Of a stretch of 64,000 bases of DNA, positions 2,287 to 54,425 are shown piece after piece (position 1 is the first letter of the stretch; every line of letters starts with the position of its first letter). Origin of the DNA: an uncultured Holophagales bacterium (GTDB lineage: Bacteria > Acidobacteriota > Thermoanaerobaculia > Multivoradales > UBA5704); the NCBI GenBank assembly GCA_963842525.1, contig CAWJGT010000009.1, positions 832,001-896,000 on the forward strand, read 5' to 3'. The notes under the pieces were generated by a model, which saw only the letters and a list, made by a program, of their open reading frames with translations, had not been told where the DNA came from and made no database searches. A program made the position numbers and the translations under genes.

Positions 2287-2766
2287 ATGAGAGCGCAAGC
2301 GATCACAAGGATGCTTTTTGGGAGTGCAATGCTATTCTTGTTTACTGCACCTGCCTATTCAGCGCCTGTATTCTATTCGTGGGGCGGCGAGAAAATAATC
2401 AAGATAATGGACTTTCCCGACAGTTCTGACCTTCAAAGGTTGGACGGAAACTATGTAGATGCAGGGTATCGATATCAACAGGTGACCATCTTCTTTATTC
2501 CTGTCTGGAATTATAATGAGAAATGGTGTGGATATATTGGTAATGACAACGAATATCTCGACCTTGACAGACAAAGCTTGTCAGAATTGGCAGAGGCGGC
2601 AGGTTTAAGCTTGCCTGAAAGCCCTTCGTTGCCCTTTTGGGATTCCATTGGGGGAAAACTCTTGCTTGGAGTTATTTTATTAATGTATTTTGGCTACAAA
2701 GGGAGTGGCGCTGAGAAGAAAGGAGAAGAGATAGGCCAACCACAGGGAGGCAGCATGAAAGCCTAA
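2287..2766 (+). CDS. Hypothetical exported/membrane-anchored protein, low GC
   Basis: 159 aa, AAGGAG RBS, signal peptide (..APAYSA), C-terminal TM helix. Confidence 0.75.
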   Translation: MRAQAITRMLFGSAMLFLFTAPAYSAPVFYSWGGEKIIKIMDFPDSSDLQRLDGNYVDAGYRYQQVTIFFIPVWNYNEKWCGYIGNDNEYLDLDRQSLSELAEAAGLSLPESPSLPFWDSIGGKLLLGVILLMYFGYKGSGAEKKGEEIGQPQGGSMKA

Positions 2767-2775
2767 GCCCCAGGG

Positions 2776-3433
2776 GGAGTTTCCCCAGCTCTGCCGGGGT
2801 GGCAGTAGAAGTTTTACATTTCAGGGAGTGTCCATCGCGGAAACTTCCCTCGTGAGCTGCCAAGCACACGAGAGGAGAGGAAACCACGATGGACAAGTTT
2901 GACAGTTTGAACCACACGACGTGGGAGTGCAAATAACACATCGTTCATCCCAAGTGCCGCCGGAAGGTGCTGTACGGCCAGTCGCGGTCGGATTTTGGGG
3001 AGGTGTTTCGCAAACTGGCAGCTCAGAAGGAGAGCCGGATAGAGGAAGGACACTTGATGCCCGATCACGTCCATATGCTGGTGTCGATCCGACGAAGTAC
3101 TCGGTGCCGCAGGTCGTGGGGTTCATCAAGGGCAAGAGCGCCATCCATCTGGCGAGGGTGTATGGGGAGCGCAAGCGCAACTTTGTTGGGCAGCGCTTCT
3201 GGGCGCGGGGATACTTTGTCTCGACAGTCGTTCGGGATGAGGCTGCGATTCGGGAGCACATCAAGAAGCAGGAAAAAGAGAACGAACGATCGCACCAGCT
3301 CAGTCTCTGGCGATGAGTCGCCACCGGAACGGTGTCGCAAACCCCGAGGGGTCGCATTAGCGACCTTCCAGCCGCTTTGAGCGGCTCACAGATTTAAAGC
3401 CCGGCTCTGCCGGCTCTGCCGGGGATACTTACT
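2776..3433 (+). mobile_element. IS200/IS605-family element, inactivated
   Basis: Subterminal hairpins CCCCAGCTCTGCCGGGG (left) and CCGGCTCTGCCGGGGGATACTTACT (right) around a tnpA pseudogene. Confidence 0.8.
2889..3316 (+). pseudogene. tnpA: IS200-type Y1 transposase pseudogene
   Basis: MDKFDSLNHTTWECK* then frameshifted pieces with HUH motif MPDHVHML and FWARGYFVSTV. Confidence 0.85.
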
Positions 3434-21797: not shown

Positions 21798-21818
21798 GTC
21801 GCCCCAATTTAGGTGCCA

Positions 21819-22259
21819 CCCATTAGAAGGCTCTTGTCAACGACCCACACGTCTCCCACCCGGGAGTGTTCGTTTCAAGAACGGCTCGTTCCGGCAAGAT
21901 GTGCTCCCGTGTCGGGTTTGCGCGCCCGTAGTCTCGCTGTGCTTCAGGTGCGGAGATCCGCACCAGCCACCCATCGGGATCAAGGCGGGTCGGAGCCGGT
22001 GACGGCTCCGACCCGCCCCTGGCACGGTTTGCGTGCCCCCAGAAAATCTTCGGTTCCAGGTTCGTGTCCAAGGGTTCAGGACAACCAATAAGGCTACCTC
22101 CGCCCCCCCGAAAGGTTCAGAGGTGCCAGCACATTCGGGCTCACGACCTGGGCGCATCTCCAACAAAAGAGCCAAAAACGGTGGAAGACAGGGGCCAATC
22201 AGCCGTAGAGGGTTCTTTCGCCCAGCACCTAATTGCAGGCTCCCTGTCTTCCACCTGAA
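21819..22259 (-). ncRNA. Candidate bridge/seekRNA of IS110 #1
   Basis: Structured 3' non-coding region; a 14-bp stem (22180-22193/22242-22255) encloses loop strands matching the insertion site. Confidence 0.65.
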
Positions 22260-23277
22260 TCAACCAAAAGCTTGCGCCGACCTGAACGGCACCTGGTCGC
22301 GCAGGATGTAGTACGCGGCACGAGTCAGCTTGTTCGAGATCGTCCGCAGGGCCACCAACTCGTTGGTCCTGGCCCGCTTGCGCTCGTAGAGACGCTTGGC
22401 GAGGGGCTCGAACCGAATGGCGAAATGTGAGGCCTCCATGAACGCCCAGGACAGGTACGGGTTGCCATTGCGTACGTTGCCGGAGCCCTTGACCTTGCCG
22501 TTGCTGAGGTGCTGACTGGGTACACAGCGGCAGTAGGAGGAGAAGTGGCCCGCCTCGGCAAAGCGAGCGATGGAGCCGGTCTCGTACATGATCGTCAGGG
22601 CAAGGGTCAGACCGATGCCGGGAATGCTCTCGAGCAGCTCGAACTCGGGCCTCAGTCTGGCCTGTTTGAGAACAGTTTTCTCGATGCCAGAGATTTGGTC
22701 TTTCAGCGTGCGGGCGATCGCCAGGCTGCTCGTGATCGTCAAGGCAATATGTGGGTCTGTGAATTGCTCCTCGACCTGCTCGGCAGTCATGCGCTTGAGC
22801 TCGCTGAGAGGAACTTGAGTCTCCGGTGTAGCGCGAGAAGACGTTTTTGACGCTCAGCAAGCTGGCGGTGCGCTGTCGCACCAGAAAGGCTCGACGGCGC
22901 AGTAGATCCCGCACCGCGCGCTCCTTTTTCGGATAGATGTGGCCGGTGGGCAAAATGTTGAGGTGGAGTAGACGCGCCAGCCATCGCGCGTCATGGCGAT
23001 CATCGACGTACTTCAACCCCTCGTACTGGCGAACTGCGGAGGTGTTGACCAAGCGAACCTCGTAGCCGGCCTCCATGAGGCCATCCACCAACCAGTACCA
23101 GTTGAAGGTGGACTCCACGGCGATCGCCTGGATCTGCTCCCGGAAGGGCTCCAGGGCTTCCAGGGCCGCCTCCAGACGGTTGGGCAACCGACGGCTGAGG
23201 ACAGCTTGTAGTTGTTCGTTCATCACCACGAGATAGCTGTTGGTTGAATGCAAGTCGATTCCGCAGTACAGTCCCAT
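22260..23277 (-). pseudogene. IS110 DEDD recombinase, frameshift near 22815
   Basis: YCGIDLHS, AVESTFNWYW, DDRHDA; C-terminal SIPGIG and HLSNGK in another frame. Confidence 0.88.
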
Positions 23278-23598
23278 ACGCTCCTCCTTTCAGGGATTGG
23301 TCTCCCGACGAGCCTATCGCGGCTCGTCAGAAGGGAGGAACCTTCTAGAGGATCATCAGCCGAATCTTGACCTCCTGAAGAGTCAATCGCACTTCCCAGC
23401 CGCGTTTCGGCGAGAAAACTGGCTGGTAAGTAGCACCTGAGCACGCCTTGAGGCCGTCGCTCACCCTTTGTGTGTGCGTTTTGGATGGCTTGTATGACCC
23501 GTCCGGACTTGAAGTGCACACACCTCTCCCTCTTCCGCGCGCAGGAAGTCGGCGGCCGGAAACTGCGAAGGCTGTCAGCGGCCAGAAACGCCCGAAGC

Positions 23599-23850
23599 CT
23601 ATCCGCTCACCCAGGGTAGGGCCGGTGGGCAGCTGCCCGCCGGGAAGACAACATCACGCATCCCCGCCTTGAGCTTTTCCGCAGCCGTTCGAAAGGCACC
23701 CAGGAATTCGCCGTAGGCCCGGTAGAGCTCGAGGCGGACCTTCTTGCTCGCCGCATGGAAGAGAGGAGCGGGCGATTTCTTGGATGGCTGGCCGGCCATG
23801 TCGCTTCTGGTTTCGGATTGCCTCGGGCCCGAGAGCCGCCTTTGGCGGGC
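23599..23850 (-). pseudogene. C-terminal remnant of a HUH/RAYT-like transposase
   Basis: LGPEAIRNQ..SKKSPAPLFHAASKKVR..FPAGSCPPALPWV; cut off at the MITE end; family recognised from recollection only. Confidence 0.55.
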
Positions 23851-24002
23851 ACCTAGTTCTACTTTGTCAGATTCGCTCGGCTTCGGTTGGAGAGGCCCCG
23901 AAGGGGTCTGGGCATAAAGATGCTATGCAGGGCGAGGGGGTGCAAGAGCGGGGCCGCTGGTTGTATGTTTCGGGGAACTTAGCGTTTGAAAGGGGAACCC
24001 CG

Positions 24003-25142
24003 ATGAACCAGACAGCCCAGAAGGCAGAGTTTACGCGAACGGAGAGAGCATTGCACGTGGCATTGGAGCTGGGCGGTAGCGAGTGGAAGTTGGCTTTTGC
24101 TGCGGAGGCTGGCCCGAAACCTCGGCTGCGCTCGGTGGCGGCCGGGGATCTCAACGGGCTGATGTTGGAGATCGGACGCGCCAAACACCGTTTCGGTTTA
24201 CCGGAAACAACTCCTGTCGTGAGTTGCTACGAGGCAGGCCGGGATGGATTCTGGCTTCACCGGTTCTTGCTGCTGGAGGGTGTGGAGAACGTTGTGGTGG
24301 ACTCCTCGAGCATCGAGGTGAATCGTCGGGCTCGGCGGGCGAAGACGGACCGGGTTGACGCTGAGAAGTTGCTGTCGCTGCTGATCCGCTACGCGGCAGG
24401 TGAAAGAAAAGTGTTCGGTGTGGCGCATGCGCCGACGCCGGAGCAGGAGGATGTGCGCCACCTGGGTCGAGAGTTGGAGGGCCTGAAGCAGGAGCGGACG
24501 GCCCACACCAATCGGATCAAGTCCTTGCTGGTGAGCCTTGGAATCCGGGTGAAGGTAGGCAAGGGGTTTGCGCAGCAGTTGGAGCAGTTGCGGCAGTGGA
24601 ACGGCGAGCCGCTGCTGCCAGTCTTGCGGGAGCGTCTGCGTCGGGAAGTCGAGCGGCTGGAGCTTCTGGAGAGTCAGATCAAGGAGTTGGAGCAAACTCG
24701 GCAGCGGGCCGAAGCCGCGTCCAGAGAGGGCGGGATGGTGCAGCGGCTGAAAAAGCTCAAGGCCATCGGCGACAACAGCGCCTGGTTGTTCGTCCTGGAA
24801 TTTTTTGGCTGGCGGCAGTTCCGGAATCGCCGTGAGGTAGGCAGCTTGGCTGGGTTGACGCCGATGCCCTACAAGAGCGGCACGACGGTGGACCACGAGC
24901 AGGGGATCAGTAAGTCCGGCAATGTGCGGGTGCGTACGATGTCGATCGAGATCGCCTGGGCGTGGTTGCGGTTCCAGCCGCAGAGCCGCTTGAGCTTATG
25001 GTTCCAGGGGCGCTATGGCCCTGGGAACCGGCGCTCGCGACGGGTAGGGATCGTGGCCCTGGCGCGCAAGCTTCTGACCGCGCTGTGGCGCTACTTGGAC
25101 CAAGGGATCATTCCTGATGGCGCTGAGCTGAAGGCCAGGTAA
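24003..25142 (+). CDS. IS110 recombinase (intact)
   Basis: VALELGGSEW, CYEAGRDGFWLHR, KTDRVDA, GLTPMPYKSG, EQGISKSGN. Confidence 0.92.
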   Translation: MNQTAQKAEFTRTERALHVALELGGSEWKLAFAAEAGPKPRLRSVAAGDLNGLMLEIGRAKHRFGLPETTPVVSCYEAGRDGFWLHRFLLLEGVENVVVDSSSIEVNRRARRAKTDRVDAEKLLSLLIRYAAGERKVFGVAHAPTPEQEDVRHLGRELEGLKQERTAHTNRIKSLLVSLGIRVKVGKGFAQQLEQLRQWNGEPLLPVLRERLRREVERLELLESQIKELEQTRQRAEAASREGGMVQRLKKLKAIGDNSAWLFVLEFFGWRQFRNRREVGSLAGLTPMPYKSGTTVDHEQGISKSGNVRVRTMSIEIAWAWLRFQPQSRLSLWFQGRYGPGNRRSRRVGIVALARKLLTALWRYLDQGIIPDGAELKAR

Positions 25143-25520
25143 GGATCAAGAGGCAGAAAGTGTGACCGCAAAATAGGAGATTTCAGGCTGGGAGGAGCGT
25201 GCCCGGCGCCAGGCTGGGTTCGGTTTCGAGCCGCCATTAAAGATGGGGCCGCTCCGTTTGCTTGCCCGAGTCGCTCGCAGCGCATGCTGCATTTGGTGCC
25301 CTCTCCAAGAAATTGAGGGAGGTCAGCACGGATAGAAGCTTGACGGGGACTACGGTTCCTGGCGCAATCGGCAAGCCCCAGACGGGATCGCATTTGAGGT
25401 AGGAGAAACAGCACCTTGCTGCCGGGGGAGCTCCGGGCAACAAACCTCAGGCGGCATTCAGGAAGGAGACGAAACGCAGACCCACTTACCCGAAACGCTT
25501 GACAACGGGGGCCCACATAG
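25143..25520 (+). ncRNA. Candidate bridge RNA of IS110 #2
   Basis: Two stem/internal-loop modules whose loop strands match the target (25206-25215, 25238-25242) and donor junction (25289-25294, 25332-25338). Confidence 0.7.
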
Positions 25521-25688
25521 AAGCCTGGCGCTTCAGCGCCAGGTTGGCGCCTCCAATTTCCAGGAGCCCTGAAGGGGCGCAGGCATTCCATCCACCCGCA
25601 GCGGGGCTCGCGCACTCGCCCATGCCGTCGCCCCTTCGGGGCTGAGGATTGAATGGGGCCGCGGTCCTGGGGTTGAAACCCCAGGCTT

Positions 25689-27529
25689 GTGCGCCCGTGA
25701 GCGCACACGTTCAGAGAGGTGAAAGTCCTCTTCAGGCATACGCTCTCCGGCCTGTAACCGAAGGTAACTGCGTCGCCCAAAGCGAGGTGGAGAGCAACCG
25801 GAGGTGAGAGACCAGTCCGCAGGAGACGAAATCGATTCGGCCTTGTGACCCCGACGAGCCTGCAAGCCACTGGCGAAGTCTGGACCCTCAAGGGAGACCC
25901 ATCGAGCTGAGGGGTAGCGTGCGAAAGCGGCGATGGGGGGGCGTAGGGTGATTGGATGCAGAATGGTCTCAAAGGACGTGTGACGTGAAGCGGGGAGACC
26001 TCGGTCGGGCAGGAGACTTGCCGAGGAGTCAGAGTCCTCATAGGAGCTGAGAAGCGCCGTAACGGGCGTGGAGCAAAGGGGGACAGGGAGGTGGATGCGT
26101 GACGACTGGACAAGCGGAAAGCAACCGCGCGTCAGTGCCTGTAAGGGCTAAACAAGCCGGAGAAGTCCGGGGCCGGTGGCCCTGGGTGGAACCGCATGTC
26201 TGGACGGATCGCATGTTGACGGCCCTCGAAGCTGGGGTCCAAGGAGGCCAATGGTTCAGTCTGATCGACAAGGTCTATGACTCGCGCAACCTGGACTCTT
26301 CCTACCAGCGGGTCAGGCGGAACCAGGGAAGCGCTGGGGTTGACCACGTGACGGTCGCGCAGTTCAGCGCCCACCTCGGCAAGAACCTGGAGAACCTGGC
26401 GGCTAGTCTGAAAGACGGCAGTTATCGTCCGCAGGCGATTCGCCGGGTGTGGATACCCAAGCCGGGTAGCTCCGAGGAGCGCCCTCTGGGGATTCCGACG
26501 GTTCAAGACCGGGTGGTGCAAGGAGCGCTGCGCAATGTCTTGGAACCGATCTTCGAACGGGAGTTTGCAGCCCAGAGCTACGGATTCCGTCCGGGGAGAA
26601 GTACCAAGGCTGCGCTGCGTCGCGTCTCGGAGCTGCTGGAGGCCGGCTATACCCATGTGGTGGACGCCGACCTGCGCAGCTATTACGACACGATCCCTCG
26701 CCAGGGTTTGATGGCGAGAATCGAAGCGAAGGTATCGGACGGCCGGGTCTTGGACCTGGTGCGTGCCTTTCTCGACCAGGAAGTGATGGTGGGTCTGGAG
26801 CACTGGACTCCTGAGGAGGGAACTCCACAAGGAGCGGTGATCAGTCCCCTGCTGTCGAATATCTACCTGGACCCTCTCGACCATCAAATGGCCGAACAAG
26901 GTTATGAGATGGTGCGGTACGCTGATGACTTCGTGATTTTGTGCCGTAGCCGAGAAGAGGCCGAGCGAGCGTTGGCGGAGGTGGAGGAGTGGACGGCAGC
27001 CGCCGGTCTGCAACTTCATCCCGACAAGACGCGCATCGTGGACGCCACCCAGCCGGGTGGCTTCGACTTCCTTGGGTACCACTTCGAGCGCGGCTATCGC
27101 TGGCCGAGCAAGAAGAGCCTGAAGAAGCACAAGGACACGATCCGTTCCCACACCAAGCGCACGCACGGCATCAGCCTGCGAGAGATCATCCGCCGAGTCA
27201 ACGCAGTCCGTCGGGGCTGGTTTGAGTACTTCAAACACAGTCACGGCACCACGTTCAAGCCTCTCGACCAGTGGGTGCGGATGCGCCTGAGGAGCATCCT
27301 TCGCCACCGGCAAGGGAGACGAGGACGTGGCCGGGGTCAGGACCATCATCGCTGGCCGAACGCCTTCTTTGCTGAGCATGGGTTGTTCTCCTACGTCACA
27401 GCCTATGCTCAGGCCCGTCAATCCTCTAGCAGGTAAAACCACCAACTGGAGAGCCGGATGCGGGAGATCCGCATGTCCGGTTCGGAGGGAGGGGGAGCCG
27501 GGAACTCAACCGGCCCTCCCTACCCCTAT
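25689..27529 (+). mobile_element. Group II intron (full length)
   Basis: 5' GTGCG; domain V GAGAGCCGGATGCGGGAGATCCGCATGTCCGGTTCGGAGGGAGG (~27449); 3' end CCCTACCCCTAT; exons rejoin into REP CCAGGCTT|TACGCCGTCGCCCCTTCGGGGC. Confidence 0.92.
26099..27436 (+). CDS. ltrA: Group II intron reverse transcriptase/maturase, no endonuclease domain
   Basis: RPLGIPTVQDR, GTPQGAVISPLLSN, RYADDFV, FDFLGY. Confidence 0.95.
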   Translation: MTTGQAESNRASVPVRAKQAGEVRGRWPWVEPHVWTDRMLTALEAGVQGGQWFSLIDKVYDSRNLDSSYQRVRRNQGSAGVDHVTVAQFSAHLGKNLENLAASLKDGSYRPQAIRRVWIPKPGSSEERPLGIPTVQDRVVQGALRNVLEPIFEREFAAQSYGFRPGRSTKAALRRVSELLEAGYTHVVDADLRSYYDTIPRQGLMARIEAKVSDGRVLDLVRAFLDQEVMVGLEHWTPEEGTPQGAVISPLLSNIYLDPLDHQMAEQGYEMVRYADDFVILCRSREEAERALAEVEEWTAAAGLQLHPDKTRIVDATQPGGFDFLGYHFERGYRWPSKKSLKKHKDTIRSHTKRTHGISLREIIRRVNAVRRGWFEYFKHSHGTTFKPLDQWVRMRLRSILRHRQGRRGRGRGQDHHRWPNAFFAEHGLFSYVTAYAQARQSSSR

Positions 27530-54312: not shown

Positions 54313-54425
54313 GGCTCCTGGAAATTGGGAGGCGCCAACCTGGCGCTGAAGCGCCAGGCTTTATGCCCAGGCCCCTTCGGGGCCTCTCCAATCGAAGCCG
54401 AGCGAATCTGACAAGGTAGGTTTAG
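54313..54425 (-). repeat. Partial uninterrupted copy of the MITE/REP element of 23853-27589
   Basis: Reverse complement aligns to 23853-23919 joined to 25524-25567. Confidence 0.85.

Follow-up and report, generated by a model that had tools for sequence, protein, structure and literature searches.

An IS110-superfamily insertion sequence with a predicted 3′ bridge RNA, inserted between the hairpins of an abundant repeat in an uncultured Holophagales genome

Does the right end of a mobile element encode the RNA that would choose its target? This question is raised by a recombinase gene of an uncultured Holophagales bacterium (assembly GCA_963842525.1), for which we analysed 64,000 nt of contig CAWJGT010000009.1 (positions 832,001 to 896,000, forward strand; hereafter the window, in whose numbering all positions are given). 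As read from the sequence, a bridge-RNA insertion sequence spans positions 23920-25523. It is very probably an autonomous member of the IS110 superfamily with an IS1111-type layout, i.e. a short left end, the recombinase gene and a long right end with a guide RNA, and the element is real, intact and most probably active. An earlier reading of the window (the sequence-only reading) had proposed a 3′ bridge RNA with target and donor loops beside an intact recombinase, which is borne out here by comparative evidence from covariation, guide strands and family membership. This kind of system has been known since 2024, and the element is a well-supported but ordinary addition to it.

The anatomy of the element, its copies and an empty site were observed directly. 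Its start ATGCTATGC at 23920 directly follows the left flank ...GGGCATAAAG, which ends at 23919, and its end ...CACATAGAAG at 25523 is followed from 25524 by the right flank CCTGGCGC. Subterminal inverted repeats, CTATG (23923-23927) and CATAG (25516-25520), each lie 3 nt from their tip, with 5 perfect bp or 8/11 matches when extended. The genome (9.95 Mb in 34 contigs) contains four copies of the element (lineage A) at 100, 100, 99.9 and 99.8% identity, all with open frames. Each is flanked by ...GCATAAAG and CCTGG..., and one of them occupies a diverged site, CCTGGGGT. Two sister lineages in the same genome (loci L005-L012) share 76-77% nucleotide identity with lineage A, namely lineage B with five full copies and one partial copy and lineage C with two copies. 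The recombinases of A and B are identical at 294/377 residues and those of A and C at 291/374 (78% each), while B and C match at 361/382. All three lineages have the same tips (ATGCTATGC... and ...CACATAGAAG) and the same donor-loop strings. Re-reading of the window placed every string and coordinate of the sequence-only reading where it had been reported; its 3-nt core AAG, however, has to be shortened to the 2-nt AG, since lineages B and C carry TCAG on the left and GAAG at the right tip, which leaves AG as the common core and makes the third A in the lineage A copy coincidental.

The empty target announced for the same window was confirmed at 54351-54368 on the minus strand, which reads GGGCATAAAGCCTGGCGC. 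Flanks of the element (80 nt left, 60 nt right) align at adjacent positions of this empty site (17-92 and 93-150), with 67/76 and 52/57 identical bases, and the aligned site carries a single AG. Further unoccupied sites are common in the genome: the 13-mer target of lineage A, TAAAGCCTGGCGC, occurs at 19 of them, where 0.4 would be expected from composition, and almost all of these fall within one two-hairpin repeat. The corresponding 13-mers of lineages B and C have 13 and 5 occurrences (1.7 expected for each).

The right end is linked to the target by the guide strands, which were all present as proposed (GCGCCAGGCT at 25206-25215, TAAAG at 25238-25242, GCATTT at 25289-25294 and ATAGAAG at 25332-25338). 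At the equivalent loop position, the 5′ strand of the target loop is GCGCCAGGCT in lineage A, GCCCAGGGCT in B and GGGCGGAGCT in C. The right flanks of B and C are AG+CCCTGGGC and AG+CTCCGCCC, and the target strand of each lineage matches its own site at 10/10 positions. Likewise, the 3′ strand of the target loop is TAAAG in A and CTCAG in both B and C, the same as their left flanks, and in the element of the window TAAAG followed by AUG equals the left junction TAAAG|ATG. The recombinases of B and C are 94.5% identical, and their right flanks are nonetheless different. Lineages B and C differ chiefly in the 5′ strand of the target loop, and they target two other repeat families, ...GGCCTCAG|CCCTGGGC and ...CTCAG|CTCCGCCC, respectively. 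The core dinucleotide is found in three of the four guide strands of the element (CU, AG, AG), and the fourth has UU, which would form A:U and G:U pairs; many relatives have AC, GC or CC in place of CU next to the core in the target-loop 5′ strand.

Covariation of guides with flanks and element ends was also observed among more distant relatives. A scan of genome contigs with the recombinase protein gave 173 relatives, the best 80 of which were kept (49-76% identity). Among 69 homologs, 52 right and 47 left ends were placed (duplicates were then removed), the right end at the first downstream repeat of each element's own donor-loop 7-mer and the left end at AG + 3 nt + CTATG. An exact-match search for right-flank complements missed many relatives, owing to wobble pairs and a 1-nt register shift, and a scored test was used instead. 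In this test, the target-loop 5′ strand complements the core plus 8 nt of right flank at 7.14 of 10 positions, compared to 4.13 after permutation (sd 0.19, maximum 4.84, n = 50), and the right flank alone at 5.78 compared to 3.04. The target-loop 3′ strand continues its exact match with the left flank for 2.89 nt past the core (0.85 permuted, n = 46). The claimed match of the target loop to right flank and to left flank plus core is thus upheld both in the three lineages and in the homologs, and the guide/target matches exceed chance, given the 10/10 agreement of the retargeted lineages B and C and the permutation tests.

For the donor loop, the first four bases of the 5′ strand complement element bases 1-4 at 3.57 of 4 positions compared to 2.83 permuted, with only three of these positions free, as base 4 is fixed by the rule used to find the ends. 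Typical pairs of donor 4-mer and element end are GCAT/ATGC, GGAT/ATCC, GGCT/AGCC, GTAT/ATAC and GTTT/AAAC. An alternative register of the donor 5′ strand, pairing CUGCAU with element bases 6-11, was rejected since the 4-mer tracks bases 1-4 across relatives. A further signal comes from a putative handshake base: in 44 of 47 unique elements, the equivalent of base 25339 is the same as the base that opens the right flank, compared to a permuted mean of 16.2, and none of 5000 permutations reached 44. The two bases after this position gave no signal in the same test on these 47 elements.

These guide strands are predicted to be displayed by a structured RNA of two modules (helices P0-P6, Table 1). 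From 46 candidate segments and lineage C, an initial alignment of 38 sequences was obtained after dropping near-duplicates (L004, the second L017 copy, L039), the truncated L037 and the poorly anchored L045, L050, L065, L067 and L091. A structure of 41 pairs, drawn by hand, has 76.0% of its cells paired on this raw MAFFT alignment, compared to 36-48% when the pairing partners were slid. A covariance model (R1) built on the raw alignment was then searched in 70 sources (the window and 69 loci) out of 93 (the window and 92 loci), duplicates and truncated loci being excluded; it gave 69 matches, all on the plus strand 3′ of the gene except for the second L017 copy. In the 68 distinct RNAs re-aligned with R1, 79.2% of cells are paired (37-49% slid), both partners have changed in 33 of 41 pairs, and none of 500 shuffles reached any of five covariation measures. 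This alignment was fitted to R1 and is thus biased toward the structure; the raw MAFFT alignment already had the 76.0% of paired cells given above. Paired cells amount to 85% in P1, 90% in P2, 79% in P3, 92% in P4, 89% in P5 and 77% in P6, and double changes affect 8/10 pairs of P1, 4/5 of P2, 7/7 of P3 and 6/6 of P6. RNAalifold on the raw alignment recovered only the P1 core, P2, P4, P5 and the closing helix, while the outer part of P1, P3 and P6 were obtained from the hand-drawn structure and re-alignment. Covariation across homologs, named by the sequence-only reading as a check, is therefore observed in these helices. No Rfam 15 family matches 25188-25400 at E values up to 1. In its own genome, R1 has exactly 12 matches (four in lineage A, six in B, two in C), all of them inside elements.

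The conserved 3′ region might, alternatively, work as DNA, either as hairpins bound by the recombinase or as an internal copy of the site. It does repeat sequences of the ends and the target, and relative L037 does not differ from its near-twin L027 of the same metagenome-assembled genome as far as the internal GGATAGAAG in the donor loop; directly past this ATAGAAG the two diverge, as if it had been used as an end. L037 may thus owe a false right end to the DNA coding for the donor-loop strand. Many helix positions, however, have G:U or U:G pairs on the plus strand only (e.g. in 17, 12, 14 and 28 sequences at four pairs), which would be A-C mismatches on the other strand and hence fit an RNA of the plus strand. 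Moreover, related IS1111 transposases co-purify with RNA of their 3′ region (PMC11187229). We regard a role as DNA in place of RNA as highly improbable and retain the guide RNA as the preferred reading. Two further features of this region were seen. About 115 nt at 25382-25498, between the RNA and the conserved right tip, could not be aligned between lineages A and B. Relative L017 has two convergent RNA copies, at 2678-2877 (+) and 3231-3430 (-), in a region of about 750 nt; their right-flank guides are identical, while the left-flank guides differ (CATAAAG and CGTATAG).

The protein encoded next to this RNA is of the IS110-family RNA-guided kind by model score and fold, and its activity is predicted. 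It matches NCBIfam NF033542 ('IS110 family RNA-guided transposase') with 193.6 bits (cut-off 140), Pfam PF02371 with 56.4 bits and PF01548 with 29.9 bits (cut-off 29). Motif, spacing and invariance point to E22, E77, D116, D119 and S292-G293 as candidate catalytic residues. The proposed first acidic motif ALELG was located at residues 20-24; its acidic position is occupied by Glu in 60 of 68 aligned sequences and by Asp in 7, the remaining one having a gap, and E77, D116, D119, S292 and G293 are invariant in sets of both 31 and 68 sequences. The motif GL-P----SG is present as G284 L285 x P287 xxxx S292 G293. An AlphaFold2 model (pLDDT 82.9, pTM 0.72) has its best Foldseek matches in chains of the ISCro4 and IS621 synaptic complexes (E 8e-13 to 6e-11, target-normalised TM 0.61-0.67, about 365 columns). 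Sequence similarity to these two is limited to the C-terminal half (E 3e-6 for ISCro4 and 4e-6 for IS621), where YKSG aligns to their YESG, so that S292-G293 fall on this motif in IS621. The closest annotated plasmid relatives are unnamed 'IS110 family transposase' genes with up to 55% identity, and IS5075 and IS4321 match at 28-29% identity over residues 114-362 only (66-69 bits). All 8000 scored candidates in the protein collection matched NF033542 at E ≤0.001, i.e. at least 8000 proteins, so the family is very large.

How might such an element be expressed? A TTGACA near the right end, suggested earlier as part of a junction promoter, was found at 25499-25504 and is backed by conservation. 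The distance between TTGAC(A/G/T) and the right tip is 24-25 nt in all 33 relatives with both ends placed. Joining of the ends gives TTGACA-N17/18-GATNCT, in which A2 and T6 of the -10 box are present in 33/33 circle joints compared to 3/33 for the right end plus flank. This suggests a promoter that arises at the circle joint and nowhere else. Donor recognition, however, also constrains the bases of the left tip, and conservation of the junction promoter is thus suggestive, not proof.

For the transposition cycle, we infer transcription, processing, binding, chemistry and the order of steps as follows. Excision would join both element ends into a circle, and the joint would create the promoter (TTGACA, 18 nt, G|ATGCT). 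One transcript from this promoter would cover the recombinase gene and the 3′ RNA; the RNA of about 195 nt would be cut from it and then be bound by the recombinase. The 5′ strand of the target module would pair with the top strand of the target (core AG and 8 nt to the right) and its 3′ strand with the bottom strand (3 nt to the left and the core). The donor module would read the circle joint in the same manner: GCAU(UU) would serve for element bases 1-4, and AUAGAAG for the final 5 nt of the element together with the core. Base 25339, which matches the first target base, would probably hold the incoming strand after the exchange. The recombinase (E22, E77, D116, D119, S292) would exchange strands at the AG/CT core, and the circle would thus be inserted between the two hairpins of an Acido-Lenti-1-type repeat.

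Several observations weigh against an RNA-guided, active element. A scan of 23700-25700 for sigma-70 sites detected no promoter in the integrated element, and the -10 box at the junction, GATGCT, is weak with 3/6 consensus positions. The ends of the homologs rest on motif rules, not on empty sites. The left target guide of the lineage A copy matches only 3 nt past the core, and the two core-opposite bases of the donor 5′ strand vary in the family (13 dinucleotides), which makes pairing there uncertain. Single-sequence folding energies of 25143-25516 and 25185-25360 are no better than those of shuffles (z -0.60 and -0.94), and the minimum-energy folds of both segments differ from the conserved structure. 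For the protein, the PF01548 (DEDD) match of 29.9 bits covers profile positions 50-152 only, and the first catalytic acid is Glu in place of the Asp usual for the family. The lack of a promoter in the integrated state and the Glu would also suit copies that are inactive relics or a domesticated recombinase, with the loop matches as leftovers of past activity. Such a history seems quite unlikely to us when four copies are 99.8-100% identical with open frames, 19 exact 13-mer targets lie empty where 0.4 are expected, and all 12 RNA copies of the genome are inside elements; the Glu, moreover, is the norm among the relatives and not a lesion. We keep the reading as an intact, recently active insertion sequence that is probably functional.

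Its place within the superfamily is less clear. Guide RNAs in the 3′ region of IS1111 members, their guide order and the junction promoter were published in 2024 (PMC11187229 and the available part of PMC11208160). The group is defined there by a long non-coding region 3′ of the gene and the motif GL-P----S(t)G; its transposases are 330-350 aa long and resemble that of IS1111 from end to end, and its subterminal inverted repeats measure 7-17 bp (PMC11187229). Siddiquee et al. 2024 (PMC11187229) described seekRNAs that derive from the 3′ region in four members of the IS1111 group, with the top-strand match 5′ of the bottom-strand match, and for ISEc11 the sole promoter seen was the one formed in the circle. 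According to the accessible text of Durrant et al. 2024 (PMC11208160), 93% of IS1111 elements have a bridge RNA predicted in their right end. The present element resembles the seekRNA elements ISEc11, ISKpn4 and ISPa11 in its non-coding region 3′ of the gene, with a right end of 381 nt that exceeds the left end of 83 nt as in the IS1111 group. It also shares the order of the complements in the RNA (25206-25215 complements the top strand and lies 5′ of 25238-25242, which has the top-strand sense) and the overlap of the matches at the insertion point. Both also have inverted repeats set slightly inward from the tips, the GL-P----SG motif, a promoter at the circle joint only (predicted here) and targets in folded repeats, which are REP (repetitive extragenic palindrome) elements or attC sites in those cases. 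By contrast, its recombinase has 379 aa, its first acid is Glu, not Asp, and its perfect subterminal repeat has only 5 bp (8/11 extended); for these reasons assignment with respect to IS1111 proper is kept open.

IS621 and ISCro4 (PDB 8wt6, 9t56; Durrant et al. 2024, PMC11208160, and PMC11208158, both as far as their text is available) share the modelled fold over its full length, the two RNA modules, each an internal loop with one strand per DNA strand, and a dinucleotide core, which is CT on the opposite strand in our element. The available text of Hiraizumi et al. 2024 (PMC11208158) describes handshake guides for IS621, where a donor-loop position reads the target as it appears to do here, as well as left and right target guides (LTG and RTG) of 9 and 4 nt. 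When our element is read on the opposite strand, the long guide is likewise the 5′ strand and the short one the 3′ strand, so the two might correspond to LTG and RTG of IS621. The two systems differ in that our RNA lies 3′ of the gene while theirs is in the left end, with the guide order reversed relative to the gene, in that our donor module is a multi-helix junction (P3-P6) while theirs is a simple stem-loop-stem, and in that sequence similarity is confined to the C-terminal domain. ISPpu9 of Pseudomonas putida offers another parallel: according to the accessible part of its description (PMC12288879), several copies reside in REP sequences and the transposase gene is followed by a gene for a small RNA, while extra RNA copies occur outside the element, which in our genome is the case for none of the 12.

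These differences might mark a deep clade of its own within the IS110 superfamily, outside both IS1111 proper and IS110 proper, with Glu as first acid, about 380 aa and a four-way donor module. The prevalence of Glu at position 22 (60 of 68 relatives, Asp in 7), the 379 aa compared to 330-350 aa of IS1111 transposases (PMC11187229), the mere 28-29% identity to IS5075 and IS4321 over residues 114-362, the match to IS621 and ISCro4 in the C-terminal half only (E about 3e-6) and the perfect subterminal repeat of just 5 bp would all agree with such a status. On the other hand, layout, guide order, the GL-P----SG motif and the junction promoter are all IS1111-like, and the IS110-type groups with a 3′ non-coding region noted in PMC11187229 could already contain the clade. 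A narrow literature search found no IS110 variant with Glu-Glu-Asp-Asp, which may nonetheless have been published. We hold a separate clade to be conceivable, though somewhat less than probable, and continue to describe the element by its IS1111-type layout.

Table 1. Coordinates of the element, its predicted RNA and associated sites in the window
Feature	Position	Strand	Basis
Left copy of AG core dinucleotide, end of left target flank ...CATAAAG	23918-23919	+	AG is the sole sequence common to left flank and right element end in 3/3 lineages
Left end, 83 nt, begins ATGC; subterminal repeat CTATG 23923-23927	23920-24002	+	First 4 nt covary with donor-loop 5′ strand in homologs
Recombinase gene, 379 aa	24003-25142	+	NCBIfam, Pfam, conservation, AlphaFold2/Foldseek
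Right non-coding end, 381 nt	25143-25523	+	Sequence reading
Predicted two-module guide RNA (bridge/seekRNA), about 195 nt	25188-25381	+	Covariance model match 25189-25400, 145.1 bits; covariation
Closing helix P0, CUGGG/CCCAG, tentative	25188-25192 / 25377-25381	+	34% paired in hand-drawn register; better in RNAalifold register
Target module: stem P1 (25194-25204 with 25246-25255) around target loop and hairpin P2 (25217-25232)	25194-25255	+	
Target-loop 5′ strand GCGCCAGGCU, complementary to top strand AG+CCTGGCGC (core and 8 nt right flank)	25206-25215	+	
Target-loop 3′ strand UAAAG (3 nt left flank and core, top-strand sense), then AUG, the first 3 nt of the element	25238-25245	+	
Donor module: stem P3 (25260-25266 with 25370-25376) around hairpins P4 (25272-25282), P5 (25296-25329) and P6 (25345-25360)	25260-25376	+	
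Donor-loop 5′ strand GCAU+UU; GCAU pairs element bases 1-4 (ATGC); UU opposite core (A:U, G:U)	25289-25294	+	
Donor-loop 3′ strand AUAGA+AG, sense of right element end and core; nearly invariant in family	25332-25338	+	
Putative handshake position C, same as first base of right target flank (25524)	25339	+	Permutation test
TTGACA, -35-like box, 25 nt from right end	25499-25504	+	Would form a promoter only in the circle, with G25523 and ATGCT (23920-23924)
Right tip: subterminal repeat CATAG (25516-25520), A, core AG (25522-25523)	25516-25523	+	Sequence; shared by lineages
Right target flank, hairpin CCTGGCGCTTCAGCGCCAGG of Acido-Lenti-1-type repeat	25524-25543	+	Rfam search
Group II intron; reverse transcriptase/maturase open reading frame 26099-27436; domain V match 27449-27529	25689-27529		
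Empty paralogous target GGGCATAA-AG-CCTGGCGC	54351-54368	-	Alignment of both element flanks

The target itself belongs to a repeat family similar to the Rfam motif RF01687 (Acido-Lenti-1; Weinberg et al. 2010). Scores are 29.3 bits for the empty and 27.2 bits for the filled site and fall short of the cut-off of 37, while other exact 13-mer targets of lineage A fall in matches of 49.2, 46.2 and 38.4 bits. At least 98 matches in the genome exceed the cut-off among 135 listed (150 of 2775 candidates were scored), and these matches are often inverted pairs about 150 nt apart. In the window, two-hairpin repeats were seen at 54339-54384 (+), 25524-25543 and 25666-25688. The Acido-Lenti-1-like motif behaves like a repeat of the REP type on which mobile elements land. 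Acido-Lenti-1 has reportedly been noted near group II introns, and one such intron starts 165 nt past our element, right after ...CCCCAGGCTT of another repeat of this type. The 5′ end of this intron occurs five times in the genome, four times with a 3′ end, and the 3′ exon always starts with TAYGCC...GCCCCTTCGGGGC. On contig 6, an intron copy splits precisely the lineage A target, one base from the AG/CT core. The element would insert at the CT of ...CCAGG-CT-TTATGCC and the intron one base further, at ...CCAGGCTT|TATGCC, and each insertion would consequently destroy the site of the other.

A further IS110-family element lies on the other side, at about 21810-23364 on the minus strand. Its recombinase is in two frames, the ATG at 23277 opening the DEDD domain and the C-terminal domain (end 22260) being in the other frame. 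A 100% identical copy elsewhere spans the same stretch, and R1 has no match in its 3′ region. The right flanks of its copies are unrelated and define no target, and the agreement in guide order that the sequence-only reading saw between this element (its IS110 #1) and ours is accordingly not supported.

As a candidate tool, the element is one orthologue among thousands. It does provide a natural example of retargeting, with three lineages in one genome that share ends and scaffold and differ in their target strands. The reprogramming rules for the clade would be 8+2 nt of target on the right and 3+2 nt on the left, with one handshake base of the donor loop to be changed together with the target. 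More interesting biologically is the meeting of a bridge-RNA element and a group II intron on the same few bases of an abundant repeat of unknown function. We would give nearly an even chance to the wider proposal that two unrelated RNA-guided elements compete for the linker between the hairpins of this repeat, and that the clade of the recombinase, with Glu-Glu-Asp-Asp, about 380 aa, only one handshake base and a donor module of several helices, may form an undescribed third branch of the bridge recombinases.

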